In this document: positions 4,079 to 51,602 of the stretch, piece after piece
Layout of the letters: each line of letters starts with the position of its first letter
How positions within the stretch are numbered: the first letter of the stretch is position 1
Assembly (NCBI GenBank): GCA_013288885.1
Contig: JABDBA010000009.1
Coordinates: 4,713-68,712, forward strand
Reading direction: 5' to 3'
Source of the DNA: Gammaproteobacteria bacterium
GTDB lineage: Bacteria; Pseudomonadota; Gammaproteobacteria; JABDBA01
Length of the DNA: 64,000 nt
Translations under genes and position numbers: made by a program
Notes under the pieces: model-generated
Told to the model about the DNA's origin: nothing
The model's input: only the letters and a program-made list of their open reading frames with translations
Databases searched by the model: none

Positions 4079-5023
4079 TTAAGTTTTATTAGCAACCACA
4101 GTAATACCAGCATCTTGAACATTAATATGCTCAATTTTCAAACCAGCTTCACTACACCATTTTTTAATCTCTTCTGGAGTATGCCTCTGACAGTTAAGAG
4201 GTCTAAACCAATCAAAATTAACATGGTTCATTTCATCAAACGAATATTCTGGGCGATAATATAACTTGCAAATATTCCAATAGAAAAAACGTTGAATATC
4301 AAGTTTTCCTTTGTTGATACCCAAATAAGGAATATCTTCTGGTACATCTACATCGATATTAAGTTCACCCAATGCAATACCCAATTTTGTTAAAGGTTCT
4401 AACGCCCTCCATGCTTGCTCATCTGACATGACCTGTAGTTGCTGGCGAATATGATCATCAGTAAATTCACGGACTGTTGCTTTTTTTCGATAAACATAAA
4501 ATAGAAAACGGCCACCTACTCGCAATTTTTTCGCGAGCACTTTAATTGATTGTTCTGTGTTATCCGTATGATGTAGCACACCCTCTGAAAAAATTATATC
4601 GGTAGAGTTATCTGGGATTGGAATATCAAGTAAACTGGTTTTAATAAAATCACCTTGATATCCCGCTTCAGCAAATCGTTCTCTTGCCACATTAACTGCG
4701 TCAGAAATATCAACACCGAGATAATCATGGTTAGTTAAATATTTATCAAAAAAAAGTAACGCGGAGTGACCGGAACCACAACCCGCATCTAAAATTATTT
4801 TTCGATCGCCTGCTAACCATTTTTCCAATCGTGTTGGATCATTATCACAATAACGCTCATATAACCATTTCTTGGTAGATTCTTTGACCGCTTCAGATTC
4901 ATAGGTATCACGTTTAGCCCATTTAAAGCCAAACGTTTGCTCTGTTTGTGATTGCGCATCACTGTACGCAGAATCTACTTTGAATTCAGCTTCATTAACC
5001 CCTAGTCTTGCCAATGCTGACAT
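4079..5023 (-). CDS. Class I SAM-dependent methyltransferase
   Basis: Motif I ILDAGCGSGHSALLF and a post-I acidic residue (GVDIS). 314 aa. Confidence 0.7.
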   Translation of the reverse strand: MSALARLGVNEAEFKVDSAYSDAQSQTEQTFGFKWAKRDTYESEAVKESTKKWLYERYCDNDPTRLEKWLAGDRKIILDAGCGSGHSALLFFDKYLTNHDYLGVDISDAVNVARERFAEAGYQGDFIKTSLLDIPIPDNSTDIIFSEGVLHHTDNTEQSIKVLAKKLRVGGRFLFYVYRKKATVREFTDDHIRQQLQVMSDEQAWRALEPLTKLGIALGELNIDVDVPEDIPYLGINKGKLDIQRFFYWNICKLYYRPEYSFDEMNHVNFDWFRPLNCQRHTPEEIKKWCSEAGLKIEHINVQDAGITVVANKT

Positions 5024-9107: not shown

Positions 9108-10196
9108 TTAAATTGCTTCGCGCAAAGCAGTGATTATTTCTTGCATTTGCTTCTCACTCACATACGGATCCATCGGCAAACTCATCACGCGTTTTGCTGC
9201 TTGCTCGGAAACAGGAAAGCTGCCTTCTTTTAGATTTAGCGGGGCAAACACTTGTTGCATATGCAATGGGATTGGATAATGCACAGCCGTAGGAACACCT
9301 ACTGTTTTAAGTTTTTCTTGCACTTTTTCGCGGTTATCCACTTGCACGGTATATTGCGCATAGACACTGGTGTTGCCTTCTGCAACATGAGGCACAGTCA
9401 CATAATCTTTGAGTAAATCGCTGTAACGCGCACCAATACGCGCACGGTCGATAACCTCTTCGGGGAAGATTTCTAATTTCGCCAATAGAATCGCCGCTTG
9501 TAAAGTATCTAAACGACTGTTCATTCCGAGCAAACGATGATGATAACGTTTGTCTTGGCCATGCACACGAATTTGCCGCATATCAGTAGCGAGTTGATCG
9601 TCATTGGTAAAACATGCACCACCATCGCCGTAACAACCCAAAGGTTTAGAGGGGAAAAAGCTGGTGCTACCAATGGTAGAAAGATTGCAGGATTTTTTGC
9701 CTTTATACATTGCTCCAAAACTTTGCGCAGCATCTTCGATAACAGGAATTTTGTGTTTGTTAGCAATCGCGTTAATCGCATCCATATCCGCACATTGACC
9801 ATATAAAGAAACCGGCATAATGGCTTTGGTTTTAGGTGTAATAGCTTGTTCGATTTTTTTAGGGTCGATGTTAAAGGTTTTGGGGTCAATATCGACAAAA
9901 ACAGGCTTAGCGCCCATTAAGGCAATCATTTCACCCGTGGCAATAAAGGTAAAAGGCGTAGTAATGACTTCATCCCCAGCTTTAATGCCCAACGCCATCA
10001 TTGATACCATTAAACTATCAGTACCATTGGCCATAGTGATACAGTGTTTAGCCCCTACGTAATTGGCTAGTTTCTCTTCCAATTCCTGAACTTCCGGCCC
10101 CATAATGAATTGGCCATGTTCCAATACGGTTTTAATGCGTTTGTTAACTTTTTCTTCAATGCGTCGATATTGGGTCTTCAGGTCAATAAATTGCAT
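9108..10196 (-). CDS. wbpE: DegT-family aminotransferase, WbpE-like (UDP-2-acetamido-2-deoxy-3-oxo-glucuronate aminotransferase)
   Basis: 362 aa DegT-family sequence (MQFIDLKTQY..., SFFPSKPLGCYGDGG). The locus also has WbpA/B/D-like genes. Confidence 0.7.
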   Translation of the reverse strand: MQFIDLKTQYRRIEEKVNKRIKTVLEHGQFIMGPEVQELEEKLANYVGAKHCITMANGTDSLMVSMMALGIKAGDEVITTPFTFIATGEMIALMGAKPVFVDIDPKTFNIDPKKIEQAITPKTKAIMPVSLYGQCADMDAINAIANKHKIPVIEDAAQSFGAMYKGKKSCNLSTIGSTSFFPSKPLGCYGDGGACFTNDDQLATDMRQIRVHGQDKRYHHRLLGMNSRLDTLQAAILLAKLEIFPEEVIDRARIGARYSDLLKDYVTVPHVAEGNTSVYAQYTVQVDNREKVQEKLKTVGVPTAVHYPIPLHMQQVFAPLNLKEGSFPVSEQAAKRVMSLPMDPYVSEKQMQEIITALREAI

Positions 10197-11060: not shown

Positions 11061-11438
11061 GTTTCTTCTATAAATCTTAATGAGAAATTTCTAGTCAAGC
11101 TGTTTCCATGGCTCAATGTCATTGAAATTCAGGAAGGCTCGAATTTTATTAAAATTCTGTTAAAATATGTGGTAGATGGGGTAGAAGCCAACAATGAAAC
11201 GGTGTTTATTGAAAAAGCAGAACAATATTTATCAGATGAATTAAGGAGTGAAACAATGACATTAGCACAATTATTTGAGAAAAAAGGTATGGAGAAAGGA
11301 TTGGAACAGGGCTTGCAAGAAGGCCGGCAAGAAGTGGCGCTGCGTATGCTAAAAGAAGGGTTAGGCATGGATTTGATTACTAAACTAACGGGCTTGTCGG
11401 AAGAAAATATTGTAAAACTACAAGAGCATGTAGATTAG
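11061..11438 (+). pseudogene. 5'-truncated fragment of an Rpn-family (YhgA-like) recombination-promoting nuclease / putative transposase
   Basis: The open frame from 11061 has no plausible full-length start. The C-terminal part MTLAQLFEKKGMEKGLEQGLQEGRQEVALRMLKEGLGMDLITKLTGLSEENIVKLQE matches the characteristic Rpn C-terminal tail. The nuclease domain is missing. Confidence 0.6.
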
Positions 11439-11468: not shown

Positions 11469-11513
11469 GCTCAAATCCCCCCTAGCCCCCCTTTTTCAAA
11501 GGGGGGAACAGGA
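11469..11513 (+). repeat. Hairpin repeat family A, variant 1 (AAATCCCCCCTAGCCCCCC-TTTTTCAAA-GGGGGGAACAGG)
   Basis: C6/G6 stem with a 9-nt loop. The same sequence occurs at 25712-25754 and, inverted, at 19698-19743. Confidence 0.9.
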
Positions 11514-12216
11514 TATCCGCCAACACCGGCACATGTTCATCTTGTTGCGGGGTGGGCATTTCTAAGCGAGAAAATTCATTGCTGTTGGGCAACTCAAACG
11601 TAAAGTGAGATAATTTCTGTAACGATATCAAACCTTCTGCCAATTCAAAATCAAGCACGTGGCCGCCGATCGTTTGGGTGTTATCAATGAAATGAAAATG
11701 ATAGCCGGGCATTTTAATATGTTCCATGTAATCGGGTGCGAAGAATCCGATGGCGTCGCCTTGGATGTTATGTAAATCAAATTCCCTGCTTTCATCGATA
11801 ATTTCTTTGATAGTTTTATAGGGCTTTGTTTGTTTAGGCACGCTGGCTATTTTTAGCTTAGAAAATTTTCCGCTGATATGAATTGCTAATAAAAAATTTT
11901 TGCTGCCAATTTGTTTTTCAATGCTTGCTTTGAGGTTTTCTAGACGAGTATTAGTAGTGATATTAATATTCAAATCATTATTAAATTTGCAAACTGCTGC
12001 CCAACAAAGGCGTGAACTTGCAGAAGCTAATTGTGCTTTGCCGTTAGTGCAGTGGAAAAATTTTCCGTGCAGTGCAATTAATTCACCTTCGAGTGCATTG
12101 AAAGAACCTAAACCAAAATCACCGCGTTGTTGTAGGTTGGGGAGTGAAAGATCGCCGTCGTACAAGCCGTTTTGCACGGCGATGAAAGTGGAGTATTGGT
12201 ACAGTGTATTTGACAT
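11482..12216 (-). CDS. budA: Alpha-acetolactate decarboxylase
   Basis: N-terminus LYQYSTFIAVQNGLYDGDLSL...GDFGLGSFNALEGELIALHGKFFH is typical AlsD/BudA. The last residues FPPLKKGG and the stop are encoded by repeat A. Confidence 0.8.
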   Translation of the reverse strand: MSNTLYQYSTFIAVQNGLYDGDLSLPNLQQRGDFGLGSFNALEGELIALHGKFFHCTNGKAQLASASSRLCWAAVCKFNNDLNINITTNTRLENLKASIEKQIGSKNFLLAIHISGKFSKLKIASVPKQTKPYKTIKEIIDESREFDLHNIQGDAIGFFAPDYMEHIKMPGYHFHFIDNTQTIGGHVLDFELAEGLISLQKLSHFTFELPNSNEFSRLEMPTPQQDEHVPVLADILFPPLKKGG

Positions 12217-12218
12217 CG

Positions 12219-12275
12219 CAAAATCCCCCCGCCTCGCTTAGCGCTCGTCGGCCCCCTTTTTCAAAGGGGGCGACA
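12219..12275 (+). repeat. Hairpin repeat family A, variant 2 (AAATCCCCCCGCCTCGCTTAGCGCTCGNCGGCCCCC-TTTTTCAAA-GGGGGC)
   Basis: A near-identical copy lies at 19773-19826. This copy ends 3 nt upstream of the budA start codon. Confidence 0.9.
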
Positions 12276-12317
12276 GCCTTAATTCTGCAGCAACGTCTTT
12301 AAGAGTGTAAACAATTC

Positions 12318-19673: not shown

Positions 19674-19697
19674 TGGGAAACCAGAAAAAACTCTGAA

Positions 19698-19743
19698 TTT
19701 CCTGTTCCCCCCTTTGAAAAAGGGGGGCTAGGGGGGATTTGAG
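19698..19743 (-). repeat. Hairpin repeat family A, variant 1 (inverted copy)
   Basis: Reverse complement of the 11469-11513 and 25712-25754 sequence. Confidence 0.9.
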
Positions 19744-19772: not shown

Positions 19773-19826
19773 CAAAATCCCCCCGCCTCGCTTAGCGCTC
19801 GGCGGCCCCCTTTTTCAAAGGGGGCA
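19773..19826 (+). repeat. Hairpin repeat family A, variant 2
   Basis: Near-identical to 12219-12275. Ends 2 nt from the gyrA stop codon. Confidence 0.9.
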
Positions 19827-19828
19827 AT

Positions 19829-22420
19829 TTACAAGCCAGGCTCCACTATACCCCCATCATCAACTTGGCCTACACCAGCCCCATCATCAACCACTTCTTC
19901 TACGCGCTGCAAGCCGACTAATTTTTCGCCTTCGTTAAGGCGGATTAAACGCACGCCTTGCGAATTGCGGCCAGCGCTACGAATTTCATCGACACGGGTG
20001 CGTACCAACGTACCGCGATCGCTGATCAACATAATTTCATCGGTCGGCACGACTTGAATAGCGCCCACCACTTGCCCGTTGCGTTCAGTTACTTTAATGG
20101 CCACTACACCTTGACCGCCACGCCCTGTAACACGATGTTCATCGATGGGTGTGCGTTTGCCATAACCATTTTCAGTCGCGGTAAGAATTTCACCTTGCGG
20201 CTCAGCAATAATTAACGAAATCAGGCGTTGGCCTTCTTTAAGTCTCACTCCGCGCACACCGCGTGCTACACGGCCCATGCTACGCACTTTGCTTTCGGCA
20301 AAACGAATCGCTTTACCGGAGTTTGTAAACAATAATACATCACGTTGGCCATCGGTCAACGCCACGCCGACTAAGCGATCGGTGTCATCTAAACCTAGTG
20401 CGATAATGCCATCAGCACGCGGCCGTGAAAAATCAGAAAGACTGGTTTTTTTCACCGTACCATTCGCCGTCGCCATAAAAATATATTTATCTTCTTGATA
20501 TTCACGCACCGGTAAAATGGCATGAATATTTTCGTTCTCTGCCAACGGCAATAAATTAACGATCGGTTTACCGCGTGAAATACGGCTGCCTTCGGGTAAT
20601 TTATACACTTTGAGCCAATAAACTTTGCCTAAACTGGAGAAGCACAATAACGTATCATGAGTATTCGCAATCAACAGATGTTCTACTACGTCTTCATCTT
20701 TCACGCTGGTCGCGGCTTTACCTTTGCCACCACGACGTTGCGCTTGATACGCATCCATAGCTTGCGTTTTAGCATAACCTTCGCGCGAAAAAGTGACTAC
20801 CACATCTTGTGATGGTATTAAATCTTCGTGGTTAAAATCAGCGTCATTGCTGGTAATTTCGGTGCGGCGCGCATCGCCAAAATCTTTTTGAATCGCTAAT
20901 AATTCCGCACGAATCACTTGCATTAAGCGATCGCCGCTGGATAAAATTTCAAGCAATTCTTTTATCGCATCGAGTTGTTGTTGATATTCAGCGATGATCT
21001 TATCTTGTTCTAAACCGGTCAAACGATGTAAACGTAAATCTAAGATCGCTTGCGCTTGCACTATTGATAAACGATAACCTGCTGCGGTTACCCCAAATTC
21101 AACGCCGAGTTCTTCGGGTTTAGTAATCACACTCCCTGCACGTTCTAACATCTGCACCACAGCACCGGGCTGCCAAGTTTTTTCAACTAATTTTGTTTTA
21201 GCTTCGGCAGGATCTTTAGCGGCTTTAATTAACGCAATAATCGGATCAATGTTGACCAGCGCGATGCCAAGACCTTCTAAAATATGGGCGCGATCACGCG
21301 CTTTGCGCAAATCAAACAATGTTCTACGCGTTACTACTTCGCGTCGATGACGAATAAAAGCTTCGATAATTTCTTTTAAATTTAAGATGCGCGGTTGATT
21401 GTCAACTAACGCTACCATATTGATACCAAACACGGTCTGCAATTGGGTTTGTACATATAAATTATTTAATACTACATCGACTATTTCGCCACGGCGTAAT
21501 TCGATATAGATGCGCATGCCTTCTTTATCGGATTCATCGCGCAGTGCAGTAATGCCTTCAATTTTTTTATCTTTCACCAATTCGGCGATGCGTTCGATCA
21601 AGCGCGCTTTGTTGACTTGATAAGGCAGTTCCGTGACGATAATCGATTGCTTACCATTTTTCGCATCGGTTTCAATATGTGTTTTTGAGCGTATAAAAAT
21701 GCGGCCACGGCCGGTGCGATACGCTTCGAGAATGCCCGCACGCCCTTGAATAGTCGCGGCAGTGGGGAAATCAGGGCCAGGAACATGTTGCATGAGTTGT
21801 TCTAAATCGAGTTCAGGGTTATCGATTAGTGCAATACAGGCATTGATCACTTCGGTTAAATTATGCGGCGGAATGTTGGTCGCCATACCCACGGCAATAC
21901 CGGAAGAACCATTAATGAGTAGATTAGGTATTTGGGTCGGAAATACCACAGGGGCATGTTCGGTGCCATCGTAGTTAGGTGCAAAGTCGACGGTTTCTTT
22001 GTCTAAATCGGCCATTAGGGCATGGGCGAGTCGTGCCATGCGGACTTCGGTATAACGCATTGCTGCTGGGGCATCGCCGTCGACGGAGCCGAAGTTTCCC
22101 TGGCCATCGATGAGTGGGTAGCGCAGCGAAAATGGTTGTGCCATGCGAACAATGGTATCGTAAACTGCGGTGTCACCGTGGGGGTGATATTTACCGATCA
22201 CGTCACCGACTACGCGGGCGGATTTTTTATAGGCTTTGTTCCAGTCGTTGCCAAGTTCGACCATGGCGTATAATACGCGCCGATGGACGGGTTTTAAGCC
22301 ATCGCGGACATCGGGCAGCGCTCGCCCGATGATTACGCTCATCGCGTAGTCGAGATACGATTGTTTTAGTTCAGATTCGATGGTAACTGGGATAATTTCG
22401 TTAGCAGGTTGGTTTATCAT
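19829..22420 (-). CDS. gyrA: DNA gyrase subunit A
   Basis: [30 protein letters not shown]..., active-site region [21 protein letters not shown]. The start is trimmed to the ATG at 22420; the track's 35-aa N-terminal extension is implausible. Confidence 0.97.
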
Positions 22421-25383: not shown

Positions 25384-25713
25384 ATGAAAAAAGCATTGAG
25401 TTATTTTTGTGCATTATTGTTCTTTGCCGTGAATTTAAGCGCTTTTGCAGACCCACCTCCTTCTATACCACCCGGACAACACCCTGGCGCTATTGCGATG
25501 ACTGCTGATGCTGTTCTAATGCGACCATTGTTATTGGCTGCTACTATCGGGGGAGCTGTGGTATTTATTGCAACACTTCCCTTTTCCGCTATGGGCGGAA
25601 ATGTGCATCAAGCTGGGGAAGCATTAGTAGGCGTTCCCGCTAATGCTACTTTTAAGCGCTGTTTGGGTTGTGATACCACCGATGGCACTGATGCAAGTGC
25701 TGTGAGTTACTAA
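25384..25713 (+). CDS. Exported or membrane protein of unknown function
   Basis: The start is moved to the ATG at 25384 (AAGGAG upstream), giving signal peptide MKKALSYFCALLFFAVNLSAFA. There is an internal hydrophobic segment. The stop codon lies at the edge of repeat A. Confidence 0.5.
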   Translation: MKKALSYFCALLFFAVNLSAFADPPPSIPPGQHPGAIAMTADAVLMRPLLLAATIGGAVVFIATLPFSAMGGNVHQAGEALVGVPANATFKRCLGCDTTDGTDASAVSY

Positions 25714-25754
25714 ATCCCCCCTAGCCCCCCTTTTTCAAAGGGGGGAACAGGAAA
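25712..25754 (+). repeat. Hairpin repeat family A, variant 1
   Basis: Same sequence as 11469-11513. Confidence 0.9.
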
Positions 25755-25756
25755 TT

Positions 25757-25845
25757 GTAGGTCGGATCAAGGAGCGCAGCGACGGATCCGACATACAATG
25801 CTAGCAATTATCGCTGTCGGTTCCGCTTCGCTTGAACCGACCTAC
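25757..25845. repeat. REP doublet (BIME-like, family B)
   Basis: GTAGGTCGGATCAAGGAGCGCAGCGACGGATCCGACA, then a 21-nt linker, then TGTCGGTTCCGCTTCGCTTGAACCGACCTAC. These are two inverted GTAG-hairpin units. Confidence 0.85.
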
Positions 25846-41211: not shown

Positions 41212-41369
41212 AATTGTTATTTTAATGATTACCTTAAGCTTTGACCAAAAATTTTGCCGAGGCATCATATCATTATTCCACCCCAAAGCTATAGCCTAGA
41301 TCGGTAAAATACAGTTTTTTATTTATTTCCTGCGAAACAACCAAAATAGTGCAAATTTTGAGCGGAAGA

Positions 41370-41577
41370 GTAAATAGCTGCCTGGTTATTGCTTGTCTCT
41401 CATATGCGAGCGTAACCCTCGTATCGAGGCGTGCTCACTTGCTCGCTAGACAAACATCCCTGTTTACTAGCGAGCGGCGTCATCCATGACGCCGCCCTTT
41501 CGGGCGAAGGTTGCGCGCGCGCTCTCTACTCGGCGCTCGCACAAATCGAGCCAATCAATAACCAGGCAGCTATTTAC
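41370..41577 (+). repeat. Family C hairpin element, copy 1 (208 bp, terminal inverted repeats GTAAATAGCTGCC...)
   Basis: Termini GTAAATAGCTGCCTGGTTATTG / CAATAACCAGGCAGCTATTTAC. Internal hairpins CTCGCTAG...CTAGCGAG and GGCGGCGTCAT-CC-ATGACGCCGCC. Confidence 0.85.
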
Positions 41578-41598
41578 GCTTCATATATTTGTGTGCGA

Positions 41599-41668
41599 GT
41601 AGGTCGGCTCAAGGAGCGTAGCGACGGAGCCGACATTAGTAATGCTCATTAACATCGCTGCCGGAAAG
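41599..41668. repeat. REP-like element (family B), right arm degenerate
   Basis: GTAGGTCGGCTCAAGGAGCGTAGCGACGGAGCCGACA followed by a decayed second arm. Confidence 0.7.
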
Positions 41669-41711
41669 CTACGCTATCCCACGAAAAGACACCTGAGAAC
41701 CTGGCAGCTAT

Positions 41712-42911
41712 TTACCCTTCTGTGCAGAGGGATGTTTTATCTTTCCGCACCCCACTTTTATCATAATTAAAAGAACTCGGATAACCAGCACCATTCCATA
41801 TCATGTCAAATAATGGTTTAAATACTTTATCTAAACCTAAACTATCCTCCAGCAAAAACTCGTTTATCAAAATATCAGGGGTTTGAATAATATCGCGATC
41901 AAACCTTTTCTCATCGCGATCAAAAGGGGAATTATTTCCATAGATCAGTACTACATTTTTTACACCAATAAGTGTTAAAAAAATAACAATGGGCGGTGTA
42001 ATTTGCAATTCACGAAATATCCCTTCACATTTGTTGTAAAAACTTAGTATCTGTTGTTCAAAATCTTGTTGGAGTATCGTTTTACCATTACAAGGAGGTA
42101 TACTGTTTACAGATTCGATGGAACCATTACGAAATAACATTGTATAACCGTGCGATCCACCCTCAACCAAACCTCTATGGCGAAATACACCGTCAATGTT
42201 AATACAATCTGAACCATCCGCACTACGCATTAAAGGCAGCTGATAAGCTGAATCCAAACTATCCAAATATTTATTTATATCTATTAGTGAATTTTGTAAA
42301 AACGAATAGACAGGTATTAAATGAAAAACTAATTTAGGATATGGTTGCAATGGAATAGGGGAATTATCATAGAGTAATTCACTTATTCTTTTAGCTCGAA
42401 AGTTTTTAATTTTTTCTTGAAACCCTTCCGTTGTTAAAACAGCATTTCTGACTTCAAAAACATCCATAGGCTGATTGCATGCTGAAGCACGAATATAAAA
42501 ACGATTCGATTTTTTAGCAGCATGCGGCTTATTTAAACTTTGTATTATTTTTAGAATTAAAACTTTCTTTGTACTATCCTCAACTATTTTAATATCAGAT
42601 CCATAAAAACTAGGTTCAGTATTAGTTCTAATGACTTCAGTAATCTTTCGTATTTCACCATCTGAGTTACTTATCTCTATACCAGATATAGCGGTAGGAA
42701 ATCCATCCTTTTCTTCCATACCGTAAACAATATACCCACCAGATGCATTTGCAAATGCACACACATCATTAATAAAACCTTCTTTTTCTTTATCATTAGA
42801 AAAATTTGGTAATTTACTTTTGTAATCAATATATTTTGATTCCGGAACTTTATTCTCCACTAAGCCTGTAATATCCGAGAACTTAATTTGGCTAAACGAT
42901 TCAAAAAGCAT
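41712..42911 (-). CDS. Schlafen/AlbA_2-domain protein with an uncharacterised C-terminal half of about 230 aa
   Basis: The N-terminal 150 aa follow the AlbA_2 pattern: ESKYIDYKSKLP...FINDVCAFANASGGYIVYGMEEKDG...VLILKIIQSLNKPH...FYIRASACNQPMDVFEV. I recognise no motif in the C-terminal half. Confidence 0.6.
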   Translation of the reverse strand: MLFESFSQIKFSDITGLVENKVPESKYIDYKSKLPNFSNDKEKEGFINDVCAFANASGGYIVYGMEEKDGFPTAISGIEISNSDGEIRKITEVIRTNTEPSFYGSDIKIVEDSTKKVLILKIIQSLNKPHAAKKSNRFYIRASACNQPMDVFEVRNAVLTTEGFQEKIKNFRAKRISELLYDNSPIPLQPYPKLVFHLIPVYSFLQNSLIDINKYLDSLDSAYQLPLMRSADGSDCINIDGVFRHRGLVEGGSHGYTMLFRNGSIESVNSIPPCNGKTILQQDFEQQILSFYNKCEGIFRELQITPPIVIFLTLIGVKNVVLIYGNNSPFDRDEKRFDRDIIQTPDILINEFLLEDSLGLDKVFKPLFDMIWNGAGYPSSFNYDKSGVRKDKTSLCTEG

Positions 42912-43029
42912 GACATACTCCTCAAGACTATACCTATTGCAAAATTTCCAACAGTTTATATTTAATTGGTTTTCAATACCTGGTTATTCTCACCTTTGTA
43001 TAGATGGTAGGATTGCCTTTCGAGTTGCT

Positions 43030-43159
43030 CTATTTCAAAACTCTCTTAGCAATTCGATAAATTTCTCCGTCATTTCGTTTACCAACCAAGACTATCGTTA
43101 CTATTTACTATGTCTTTTTCAGGTTCAAATCGATAGATAATCCTATATTCGCCTATAAG
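43030..43159 (-). pseudogene. RelE/ParE-type toxin remnant (C-terminal third only, frameshifted)
   Basis: The reverse strand reads LIGEYRIIYRFEPEKDIV... then, after a 1-nt shift, VTIVLVGKRNDGEIYRIAKRVLK*. Compare the intact toxin at 28922-29188 (IGEYRIIYSFDDSIVYIKLIGKRNGGEVYKKLKR). Confidence 0.55.
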
Positions 43160-43164
43160 AGATC

Positions 43165-43248
43165 ATGTGGTCAAGTCTACGATCTATGTATTTGACAATA
43201 TTTTGCGCAAAATATTGTCAAATACATAGATCGTAGACTTGACCACAT
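43165..43248. repeat. Perfect 84-bp palindrome (40-bp arms around a central GCGC)
   Basis: ATGTGGTCAAGTCTACGATCTATGTATTTGACAATATTTT GCGC AAAATATTGTCAAATACATAGATCGTAGACTTGACCACAT. Checked base by base. Confidence 0.95.
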
Positions 43249-43260
43249 CGCCTTTTTCTC

Positions 43261-43354
43261 CGCGGCTCAAGGAGCGTAGCGACGGAGCCGACAGCGATAA
43301 TGATTTAGCATCGAATGTCGGATCCGTCGCTGGCGCTCCTTGATCCGACCTACC
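43261..43354. repeat. REP doublet (BIME-like, family B)
   Basis: ...GGCTCAAGGAGCGTAGCGACGGAGCCGACA - linker - TGTCGGATCCGTCGCTGGCGCTCCTTGATCCGACCTAC. Confidence 0.85.
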
Positions 43355-43372
43355 TGCACTCAGATATAAAGC

Positions 43373-43581
43373 GTAAATAGCTGCCAGATGACTTGCTTGG
43401 CTTGAGTTGTGCAAGCGCCGAGTAGAGGGTGCGGCGCAACCTTCGCCCGTAGGGCGGCGTCATGGATGACGCCGCTCGCTAGTAGACAGGGATGTTTGTC
43501 TAGCGAGCAAGTGAGCACGCCCCGAATACGAGGAGCAAGCTTGCACACGAAAGACAAGCAAGTCATCTGGCAGCTATTTAC
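43373..43581 (-). repeat. Family C hairpin element, copy 2 (inverted relative to copy 1)
   Basis: The core is homologous to the reverse complement of 41370-41577. Termini GTAAATAGCTGCCAGATGACTTGCTTG / CAAGCAAGTCATCTGGCAGCTATTTAC. It ends 5 nt before the dxr stop. Confidence 0.85.
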
Positions 43582-43586
43582 ACATT

Positions 43587-44762
43587 TTACGGGTGGCGAT
43601 TTAAGAGTTGCGCACATTCTCGTGCAGCGGCGTTGTCTTGCAGGATGATGTCTAAGTTCGTGGCGGGTCGTGATGGAAGTTTGTTTAACACTTTATCGAC
43701 GGTGATGGCGATATCGGTGAATGCCATTTTGCCGTCTAAAAATGCTTGCACGGCAATTTCGTTAGCGGCATTTAAAATGGTTGGTGCAGTACCGCCTGTT
43801 TGCAGTGCTTGATACGCTAAATTTAAACACGGGTAACGTTCAGTATCTAACACCGCAAAATCTAACTTGCCTAAAGTCAATAAATCCAAATTATTCACCC
43901 CACTGGCGATGCGTTCGGGCCAAGCCAAGGCATGGGCGATCGGCACGCGCATATCGGAACAACCCAAATGCGCTAAGGTAGAACCATCTTTATATTCCAC
44001 TAATGAATGCACCGTGCTTTGTGGATGCAATAAAACTTTAATTTGATCCGCAGGTAAACCAAATAACCAATGCGCTTCGATCACTTCTAAACCTTTATTC
44101 ATCATGGTAGCGCAATCGACAGTAATCTTTGGGCCCATGTTCCAATTCGGATGAGTAATTGCTTGCGCCGGTGTCACATTGGGCAAATCCGTTAACGGCA
44201 ACTCACGAAATGCACCACCCGAAGCGGTCAATAAAATTCGGGCAATTTTAGCATTGCGTTCACCCATTTTAAAATCAGTCGGCAGGCACTGAAAAATAGC
44301 ATTGTGTTCGCTATCAATTGGCAATAACGTTGCATTGTGATCACGCACTTCTTTCATAAACAATGCACCCGCCATCACTAACGCTTCTTTATTAGCTAAT
44401 AAAACACGCTTGCCTGCTTTTGCTGCCGCTAATGTCGGCAACAAACCTACCGCTCCGACAATAGCAGCCATCACGATATCGGCTTGCGGCAGGCTAGCTA
44501 CTGTTTCTAAACCAGCATTGCCTATTAACACTTCAATTGTTAAATTAATTTTTTGTAAGCGTTGTTGCAATAATTTAGCACTCGCTTCATCCGCCACCAC
44601 AGCATATTCAGGGCGATGCAATGCGCACAGATCATATAAACGATCAATATTTTTATGCGCAGTCAATGCCAGCACCCGAAAATTTTCACGATGACGGGCA
44701 ATAATATCTAACGTGCTTAAACCAATTGATCCTGTTGCACCTAAAATAACAATATTTTTCAT
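43587..44762 (-). CDS. dxr: 1-deoxy-D-xylulose 5-phosphate reductoisomerase
   Basis: ILGATGSIGLSTLDI N-terminus. 391 aa. Confidence 0.95.
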   Translation of the reverse strand: MKNIVILGATGSIGLSTLDIIARHRENFRVLALTAHKNIDRLYDLCALHRPEYAVVADEASAKLLQQRLQKINLTIEVLIGNAGLETVASLPQADIVMAAIVGAVGLLPTLAAAKAGKRVLLANKEALVMAGALFMKEVRDHNATLLPIDSEHNAIFQCLPTDFKMGERNAKIARILLTASGGAFRELPLTDLPNVTPAQAITHPNWNMGPKITVDCATMMNKGLEVIEAHWLFGLPADQIKVLLHPQSTVHSLVEYKDGSTLAHLGCSDMRVPIAHALAWPERIASGVNNLDLLTLGKLDFAVLDTERYPCLNLAYQALQTGGTAPTILNAANEIAVQAFLDGKMAFTDIAITVDKVLNKLPSRPATNLDIILQDNAAARECAQLLNRHP

Positions 44763-47642: not shown

Positions 47643-47693
47643 AACTTAGTTCCCACTCTTAAAAATACAGTTATCTCATATGCTCTAAGCAAT

Positions 47694-47787
47694 TGGATTT
47701 TCGGCTAGGCGTCAAGTCGCGAGCAAGCGGAGCATATGGGTTATATGTGAGCATTGCGAGCGACGCAGACAACAACGCCGAAAGTCC
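47694..47787. repeat. Imperfect palindromic intergenic element between tsf and pyrH
   Basis: Arms TGGATTTTCGGC...TCGCGAGCAA / TTGCGAGCGA...GCCGAAAGTCCA with mismatched interior. Confidence 0.45.
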
Positions 47788-47801
47788 AAGTGCGACGAGC
47801 A

Positions 47802-49465: not shown

Positions 49466-49626
49466 AATAATCTCCGATTGTATTGTGGGTTGGGCCTCCA
49501 TCTACTCCATATCTCAAGCTTTTAAGGGCCACCCTAGAGATATGTGTCGGTAGATGTGTGGATTTATTTGCGTTTATGCGCCATGCTTTATACCATAGAT
49601 AGTTATTTACGACAACGGTACTTTAT

Positions 49627-51402: not shown

Positions 51403-51504
51403 GATCCTAGGGGTCAGATCTTGACTTGCTACATGCTAAAGAGACAGTTATTGAGCCCTATAATTTCTAAGCAAGTAGCAAGTCAAGATCTGACCCCTAG
51501 GATC
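51403..51504. repeat. Perfect 30-bp inverted repeat with a 42-nt spacer
   Basis: GATCCTAGGGGTCAGATCTTGACTTGCTAC (51403-51432) and its exact reverse complement (51475-51504), starting 6 nt after the ansA stop. Confidence 0.95.
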
Positions 51505-51564
51505 GTTACGAAACAGTTCGTTACGAAACAGTTCGTCACGAACCATTGCGTTACGAACCAGTTC
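51505..51564 (+). promoter_or_regulatory. Four tandem 15-bp direct repeats (GTTACGAAACAGTTC consensus) upstream of the ATPase gene. Candidate operator or iteron array overlapping a promoter.
   Basis: Units at 51505, 51520, 51535 and 51550. The first two are identical; the third and fourth differ at a few positions. They are followed by TATACT (51574-79), AGGAGG (51587-92) and the ATG at 51603. Confidence 0.6.
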
Positions 51565-51602
51565 GTGGTAAGCTATACTTGAATTTAGGAGGCTAGTATC
51601 CC

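Follow-up and report, generated by a model that had tools for sequence, protein, structure and literature searches.

Family C is a previously undescribed palindromic, non-coding repeat family of about 210 bp in an uncultured gammaproteobacterium, and its copies maintained their pairing while their sequences drifted, with fixed mismatches and loops conserved. The DNA analyzed here (the window) is a 64,000-nt stretch of contig JABDBA010000009.1, in which two full copies in inverted orientation bound a 2.2-kb block carrying a gene. Although each copy differs from the others close to its ends, the change on one arm is matched by the complementary change on the other, and this matched change extends over most of the folded structure.

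Family C Copies and Their Termini

Two full elements were identified in the window with the covariance model R1: copy 1 (41370..41577, plus strand, 208 nt), which scored 242 bits over positions 1-209, and copy 2 (43373..43581, minus strand, 209 nt), which is inverted relative to copy 1, scored 235 bits and ends 5 nt past the dxr stop codon. When copy 1 (plus strand) was aligned with the reverse complement of copy 2, the identity was 91%. Each full element was bounded by a conserved 13-nt terminal box, GTAAATAGCTGCC, located at 41370..41382 (plus strand) with partners at 41565-41577, 43373-43385, and 43569-43581. A scan of the window for this box, for which the chance expectation is 1.7 matches at no more than two mismatches, gave exact sites at 41370(+), 41565(-), 43373(+), and 43569(-), and a fifth at 41703(-). 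Thus, the coordinates and the shared 13-nt ends given in a preliminary description of this DNA were confirmed, with the box exact at all four termini. The fifth site belonged to a truncated third window copy (41680..41715, minus strand; exact terminus 41703-41715), which retained approximately 36 nt of the left arm, GTAAATAGCTGCC AGGTTCTCAGG TGTCTTTTCGTG.

The terminal regions read TGGTTATTG / CAATAACCA in copy 1 and AGATGACTTGCTTG / CAAGCAAGTCATCT in copy 2, and directly inside the box lay a variable subterminal block. In copy 1 this block was TGGTTAT (41383..41389, plus strand), which paired perfectly with ATAACCA at 41558-41564, and in copy 2 it was AGATGACT / AGTCATCT (43386-43393 / 43561-43568). 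The truncated arm carried a version of its own, AGGTTCTCAGG. The preliminary description had reported that the two full copies carry different sequences at this position, each with its exact complement on the opposite arm. The difference and its complement on the opposite arm were borne out; the blocks themselves proved to be homologous (TGGTTA-T versus AGATGACT, then TGCTTG common to both), the strings originally compared having been of unequal extent. The two blocks were separated by three substitutions and a 1-nt indel, each of which was mirrored on the other arm.

A third full copy was found at positions 9308-9513 of contig L031, which was the sole match to family C among the JGI metagenome contigs in an exact scan. 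In X1, a small public run with 2.76 Mb of Logan contigs, 0.89 of the words of the window and 0.86 of those of L031 were present; thus, L031 came from the same organism as the window, and its copy is a paralogue. This copy was sited between valS and the next gene. Its terminal box was GTAAATATCTACC / GGTAGATATTTAC, in which both changes were compensated, and its subterminal block was AGGTG / CACCT. In addition, the L031 copy was enclosed by a further perfect 13-bp inverted repeat, GCCTTACCCATAA / TTATGGGTAAGGC (9285-9537), giving a hairpin of approximately 253 nt; the outer repeat is either a pre-existing hairpin that the element entered or the flanking part of a longer form of the element.

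Fold and Covariation of the Element

When folded as RNA, copy 1 reached -112.9 kcal/mol (z = -11.2 against shuffled sequences) and copy 2 gave z = -13.6; the DNA fold of copy 1 with its flanks gave z = -9.7. Each copy formed an imperfect stem of approximately 70 bp, closed by the termini and capped by three small hairpins, and the stem was divided into the conserved 13-bp box, the paired variable block (5-8 bp in full copies), a conserved inner stem, and a conserved junction. The element probably measures about 208 nt between the 13-nt boxes and 220-250 nt with its weakly conserved outer extensions (left AAAA(T/C)G.., right GCTT(N)AT(A/G)T). Five or more copies, including one represented by a freshwater-metagenome read, had the right-hand motif next to their right end, and in the window the conserved right-hand extension or spacer was GCTTCATATATTTGTGTGCGA at 41578..41598 (plus strand), with its copy 2 equivalent at 43354-43372. 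The left side of the inner imperfect stem (41390..41440, plus strand) paired with approximately 41506-41557, and here TGCTTGTCTC / GAGCCAATCA carried C.T and T.C mismatches and internal loops that were conserved in all three copies. The junction sequences GGCGTGCTCAC..., GGGCGAAGGTTGCGC, and CTCTACTCGGCGCT were also conserved.

The crown consisted of apical hairpin 1 (41441..41475, plus strand; GCTCGCTAG..AAAC, loop ATCCCT, GTTT..CTAGCGAGC), the stem of which covaried in L031; apical hairpin 2 (41476..41493, plus strand; GGCGTCAT CC ATGACGCC), in which pairs 115-126 and 116-125 were doubly changed; and apical hairpin 3 (41494..41505, plus strand; GCCC TTTC GGGC), the weakest of the three, with 80% of its cells paired. 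In L031, both large apical hairpins had different stem sequences and the same loops; apical hairpin 2, for example, read TGTGCAACA TCC TGTTGCACA, a different stem around the same TCC loop. In all three copies both large loops kept (A/G)TCC, which is A(N)GGA on the opposite strand, and these two loops were the only places in copy 1 where TCC triplets were found.

The three-copy RNAalifold structure comprised 79 pairs with 96% of cells paired, and 11 of these pairs were doubly changed. In column shuffles, 4.1 +/- 1.7 doubly changed pairs were obtained and the observed number was reached by 0 of 500, and sliding the partners by 1-3 columns left 0-2 doubly changed pairs; as they rest on three sequences, these controls serve as an indication and not as a true probability. 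The signal was nevertheless the same over all helices, with doubly changed pairs in the terminal box, in the variable block, in the inner stem, and in both large apical hairpins. Between copies 1 and 2, nine of the 79 pairs varied: seven had changed at both partners without loss of pairing, one had turned into G-U, and one had lost its pairing; 12 of the 56 unpaired columns differed (21%). In each of the three full copies the outer 20-27 bp paired without a mismatch, although their sequence and length differed. The claim that pairing is kept while sequence changes was therefore upheld well beyond the subterminal blocks for which it had been made: the third copy from the same genome extended it to the box, the inner stem, and two apical hairpins. 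The accompanying statement that ordinary MITE decay would not produce this pattern also holds, since neutral decay does not give seven compensated pairs among nine that vary.

Further Copies in the Genome and Elsewhere

At least seven long contigs of X1 ended in a family C left arm: 6760 (copy 1), 4212 (copy 2), 3093 (L031), 6013, 19066, 11118, and 11716. X1 also contained several right-arm contigs, a 9600-nt contig with a copy that lacks its left part, and a derivative with an internal deletion that joins 41437 to 41530. Altogether, at least seven distinct left arms and at least six versions of the subterminal block were found in assembly-graph contigs of the same genome. Three full copies (n=3) could be read; the remaining arms came from assembly-graph contigs in which left and right arms are unphased and substitutions within approximately 32 nt of the alignment end are hidden. 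Additional readable arms were GTAAATATCTGCC AGG(TAT), GTAAATAGCTGGC GGGTCAT, GTAAATCGCTGCC AGGTTAT, and ...CACCCC GGCAGCTATTTATTAC, so that the block versions read as TGGTTAT, AGATGACT, AGGTG, AGGTTCTCAGG, GGGTCAT, AGGTTAT, and AGG(TAT). These results indicated that the block is hypervariable in both sequence and length; the division into two sub-families that would have spoken against the preliminary reading does not account for it, because more than two versions exist. None of the right arms seen was a perfect complement of the left arm of the 6013-nt contig (GTAAATAGCTACC GGGTAAT), which suggests that some copies may have imperfect outer stems. The block TGGTTAT occurred in copy 1 and at no fewer than one other locus with a different flank, as far as contig data with some hidden differences can tell, which argues against a target-specifying role of the block; the proposal that it is a variable specificity segment tracking the flanking target thus found no support.

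Outside this genome, single reads approximately 97% identical to the element were recovered from two freshwater metagenomes. Exact scans of the GTDB representative genomes (both termini with a gap, and core 20-mers) gave no relevant match, the 27 hits being single chance matches in GC-rich genomes, none of which contained the terminus, and an exact scan of IMG/VR gave none. With the R1 model, only the three full copies were detected in the window and contigs L028 and L031-L035, and all other matches were unrelated palindromes. No new copy was present in the approximately 9 kb beyond the window edges that were reached through the edge genes, and no empty-site or excision reads for a single copy were found in the four metagenomes searched.

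A 2.2-kb Inserted Block between dxr and bamA

The region between the outer ends of the inverted copies (41370..43581) constitutes a 2.2-kb block situated between dxr and bamA. In the two closest relatives available, contigs L034 and L035, dxr is directly followed by bamA, with intergenic regions of 217 nt (11168-11384) and 47 nt (4505-4551), respectively; the gene order is the same in both, their dxr identity to the window is 78% (L034, the closest available) and 68% (L035), and neither has a match to the family C model. Since dxr abuts bamA in both relatives, we concluded that 41370-43581 is an insertion. The window sequence between copy 1 and bamA aligned to the L034 intergenic region from approximately 20 nt past the L034 dxr stop. 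The block is ordered as copy 1, spacer, family B hairpin, truncated family C arm, Schlafen/AlbA_2 gene, 84-bp palindrome, family B hairpin, spacer, and copy 2, and its two sides are homologous over the C element, spacer, and B hairpin (approximately 300 bp), so that it looks like a composite unit. On the basis of one occupied site and two empty relatives, the block may have moved as one piece.

The cargo gene (41712..42911, minus strand) encodes a 399-aa protein with an N-terminal Schlafen/AlbA_2 domain (PF04326, E = 8e-20) and had no PADLOC or NCBIfam match. Its TAA stop codon (41712-41714) sits within the GTAAAT terminus of the truncated family C arm; thus, a family C arm supplied, or replaced, the end of this gene. 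Low-depth contigs from peat and hot-spring metagenomes (X2 and X3) were 100% identical to parts of 42343-43053, which suggests that the organism, or the block, is present in several environments.

On the minus strand, the window carries rpsB-tsf-pyrH-frr-uppS-cdsA-dxr ... bamA-skp-lpxD, with the dxr ORF at 43587-44762 and a t44 RNA match at 49489-49578. All full copies of family C were intergenic and near gene ends, namely past the dxr stop, upstream of bamA, and between valS and its neighbor. As a separate observation, no rseP was present between dxr and bamA in the window (41287-43586), and cdsA-dxr-bamA were contiguous in both relatives; the order in E. coli differs.

Coding Potential and Database Searches

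The 22-aa peptide common to ORFs of copies 1 and 2 had been attributed to nucleotide conservation, and our data agree that it is not coding: its frame was broken in the L031 copy, and neither the 85-aa spurious ORF nor a six-frame chimera of the three copies had a protein match among 5.8 billion clusters. A protein-coding micro-ORF was accordingly rejected, with the frame not kept in L031 and no homologue in any frame. Membership of an Rfam family was also rejected, because Rfam 15 contained no covariance model matching at gathering score (the best sub-threshold match on the element had 19 bits, E = 0.14). Promoter and terminator signals at family C were not above background, and a search for RNA runs containing the region found none.

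None of the three full copies was flanked by a direct repeat of 2-10 nt that could represent a target-site duplication, nor was the 2.2-kb block. The Pfam-scanned subset of ORFs in approximately 84 kb of the approximately 2.8-Mb genome yielded no transposase, RAYT, or integrase; no IS with family C ends was found in the window, the 84 kb, the GTDB representative genomes, or the JGI metagenome contigs; and no csrA was found in the 84 kb. Insertion of the element into a pre-existing family of small hairpins was rejected, since the 84 kb contained no unfilled GTAAATAGCTGCC...GGCAGCTATTTAC hairpin.

Why Pairing Is Maintained

We proposed, at what we judge to be even chances, that family C is a non-autonomous, non-coding repeat of the REPIN or structured-MITE kind with a maintained single-strand fold. 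The fold appears to be the maintained feature, presumably because the element must be recognized as a folded single strand. In the likeliest form, a structure-recognizing enzyme acting in trans, a recombinase or transposase of the HUH/RAYT type or similar with its gene elsewhere in the genome, would handle hairpin DNA; sequence-specific contacts would be made at the terminal box and in the hairpin loops, and the variable block would act as a spacer for which pairing alone matters. A constraint on the folded single strand is favored by the conserved ends and the lack of a target duplication, by the conserved asymmetric mismatches, which would mark one strand, by the truncated and deleted derivatives and the mixed orientation to neighboring genes, and by a genome crowded with hairpin repeats, including a GTAG-tagged REPIN-like family.

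The same covariation could arise if the fold were selected as RNA, that is, as a cis-module in co-transcribed mRNA serving stabilization, processing, or protein binding, and we regard this as a serious rival, if on balance doubtful. All copies lie in intergenic regions close to gene ends, the loops of both large apical hairpins retain TCC/GGA in each of the three copies while their stems covary, and G-U pairs are tolerated (six G-U against three A-C cells on the forward strand); moreover, transcribed repeats that conserve structure exist, such as bcr1 (PMC3184786) and the QMITE small RNAs of Coxiella (PMC5896051). A more specific version starts from the reverse-strand loops, AGGGAU / AUGGAU in copies 1 and 2 and AUGGAC / CAGGAUG in L031: their A(N)GGA pattern is the CsrA/RsmA loop motif, so that the element could spread paired candidate CsrA sites. 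However, orientation is mixed, so that the strand with the GGA loops would be transcribed in two of three copies and that with the TCC loops in the third; the G-U versus A-C count slightly favors the strand without GGA loops; and the background-level promoter and terminator signals also argue against an RNA. The CsrA version is further weakened by the lack of csrA in the 84 kb and by there being two GGA sites per element, and its pattern was spotted after the fact in three sequences. A rather unlikely explanation in our estimate, though still a serious one, is that the arms are kept complementary mechanically, without selection on function, either because a hairpin or cruciform is extruded in replication or transposition and mismatches are repaired off the other arm, or because the outer ~20 nt of one arm are resynthesized from the other at each transposition; mutations would then be erased or copied across, which mimics compensation. 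The perfect pairing of the outer 20-27 bp in the three full copies fits such coupling, as does the 7:2 ratio of doubly to singly changed pairs while unpaired sites differ by 21%, and the two transversion switches and the paired indel, which pass through no G-U intermediate, are easier to reach by arm coupling than by stepwise selection. The stem mismatches that persist are mostly pyrimidine-pyrimidine, a class poorly recognized by mismatch repair. In addition, the asymmetric hairpin intermediate proposed in the REPIN study has a missing end to rebuild (PMC3116915). Nevertheless, some A-C mismatches are present, and the inner-stem mismatches and asymmetric internal loops fixed in three copies argue against wholesale arm-to-arm copying or simple regeneration of a whole arm; templating over long arms does not account for covariation in the short apical hairpins (6-15 bp), and the conserved loops and junction indicate constraint at the sequence level.

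A classical IS-derived MITE, in which the ends are double-stranded inverted repeats bound by transposase, the block is a composite transposon, and the fold arises incidentally from long inverted repeats, seems improbable to us. Its attractions are the exact 13-bp inverted ends, arms largely complementary for ~70 nt, the small (208 nt), non-coding, multi-copy character of the element (at least seven left-arm contigs), and a 2.2-kb block that relatives lack and that two inverted copies enclose, and MITE pairs mobilizing intervening genes are known. Against it stand the missing target-site duplication at the three copies and the block, the covariation in the terminal box and internal hairpins, which is unexpected for a double-stranded protein-binding site, and the failure to find an IS with these ends in the window, the GTDB representatives, or the JGI metagenome contigs. 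For the preferred reading, a folded single strand, a 2.2-kb composite moving as hairpin single-stranded DNA is awkward, and a double-strand cut-and-paste enzyme would fit it better but normally leaves a duplication. Integron attC sites flanking a gene cassette share with family C an imperfect palindromic form, conserved ends, a paired but variable middle, and unpaired bases at fixed places, here beside a single promoterless-looking gene; but GTAAAT.../...ATTTAC at the ends does not match the RYYYAAC / GTTRRRY core sites, and the two sites point in opposite directions, for which reasons we rejected attC as scarcely credible, and 208 nt with a three-hairpin crown lies outside attC anatomy, with no integrase among the Pfam-scanned subset of window ORFs. 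Finally, there is an improbable but consequential variant, in which the outer stem is rebuilt from the opposite arm during folded single-strand movement, or family C is a mobile CsrA-type GGA hairpin pair. If true, outer-stem resynthesis would explain how the block drifts freely in sequence and length with perfect complementarity and would suggest an undescribed hairpin-templated transposition pathway, and a CsrA-type hairpin pair would rewire post-transcriptional control at each landing site.

Comparison with Known Repeats

ERIC, Correia (NEMIS), and RPE elements are imperfect palindromes of 100-150 bp that lie in or next to genes and fold in transcripts; Correia elements duplicate TA, RPEs insert in frame into genes, and their sequences and hosts differ from those of family C. 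Composites bounded by MITEs, such as integron mobilization units, have two MITE copies flanking cargo, and the 2.2-kb block resembles them in its two inverted copies and single gene, but not in its lack of a duplication. Among the closest known parallels are the REPINs, which are mobilized by RAYT and, like family C, are non-autonomous, intergenic, and formed of one long hairpin, with conserved ends, a less conserved middle that keeps its length and pairing, compensatory changes, no target duplication, and singlets or truncated remnants (PMC3116915). Compensatory changes are common in REPIN hairpins and have been taken as evidence for a folded replicative unit (PMC3116915). Family C differs in being two to three times longer, in its three-hairpin crown, in that no RAYT gene was seen, and in its ends, which are GTAAATAGCTGCC, lack a GTAG or CGTC tag, and are not themselves palindromic REP units; family B (GTAGGTCGG...CCGACCTAC) is closer to the REPIN pattern. 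In the Bacillus cereus group, the mobile and transcribed bcr1 repeat (~155 bp) undergoes compensatory changes that keep a cruciform-like RNA structure; likened here by description, it differs from family C in its 5-bp direct repeats and Firmicutes host (PMC3184786). QMITE1 and QMITE2 of Coxiella burnetii, also compared by description, are hairpin-forming elements of ~190 bp in a gammaproteobacterium and, sharing the overall lifestyle of family C, overlap gene ends; they occur in association with GTAG REP elements, small RNAs are produced from some of them, and, unlike family C, they have direct repeats of 7-9 bp (QMITE2) or 2-4 bp (QMITE1) (PMC5896051). Thus, family C is without the REPIN hallmarks (REP doublet, GTAG) and the classical MITE hallmark (duplication), yet works like both, and it is not a new type of system, given the compensatory changes described earlier for REPINs and bcr1.

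Family C nonetheless provides an unusually clean within-genome case of matched change on two arms, including paired indels, and it is tied to a datable insertion, a gene-carrying 2.2-kb block missing from relatives. Its remaining copies, once read, would allow a direct test between selection on the fold and mechanical copying from arm to arm, a question that also concerns REPIN-like repeats. For annotation, family C creates spurious ORFs, gives a stop codon to a neighboring gene, and breaks short-read assemblies.

Other Repeats in the Region

Family B comprises GTAG-tagged, REPIN-like hairpin repeats of ~90 nt that start with GTAGGTCGG and end with CCGACCTAC (25757-25845, 41599-41680, and 43263-43353). 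Its summed k-mer depth in X1 was ~100 times that of unique flanks, suggesting that it is probably very abundant, and two of its three occurrences in the window are separated by ~20 nt from a family C right end. Family A comprises short CCCCCCTTTTTCAAAGGGGGG hairpin repeats (11470-11516, 12219-12281, 19697-19743, 19773-19835, and 25712-25756) of two sub-types in both orientations. A perfect 84-bp AT-rich palindrome with 42-nt arms and no spacer lies upstream of the Schlafen/AlbA_2 gene (43165-43248), and Logan contig L028 breaks at its center. Another long palindrome (51403-51504; 35-nt arms, 97% complementary) is directly followed by a 15-nt unit, GTTACGAAACAGTTC, repeated in tandem about four times (51505-51565). 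Between the 241-aa and 294-aa ORFs at the pyrH/tsf positions lies a GC-rich hairpin repeat of ~100 nt unlike families A-C (47690-47793), and a 1735-aa ORF at 29625-34832 contains a tandem duplication of ~2.47 kb with segments 86-95% identical. Approximately 4.7 kb to the right of the window, Logan contig L032 ends (positions 1-60) in a ATTCCCGCCTGCGCGGGAAT palindrome of another repeat type, which we take to resemble the dRS3-type repeats of Neisseria.
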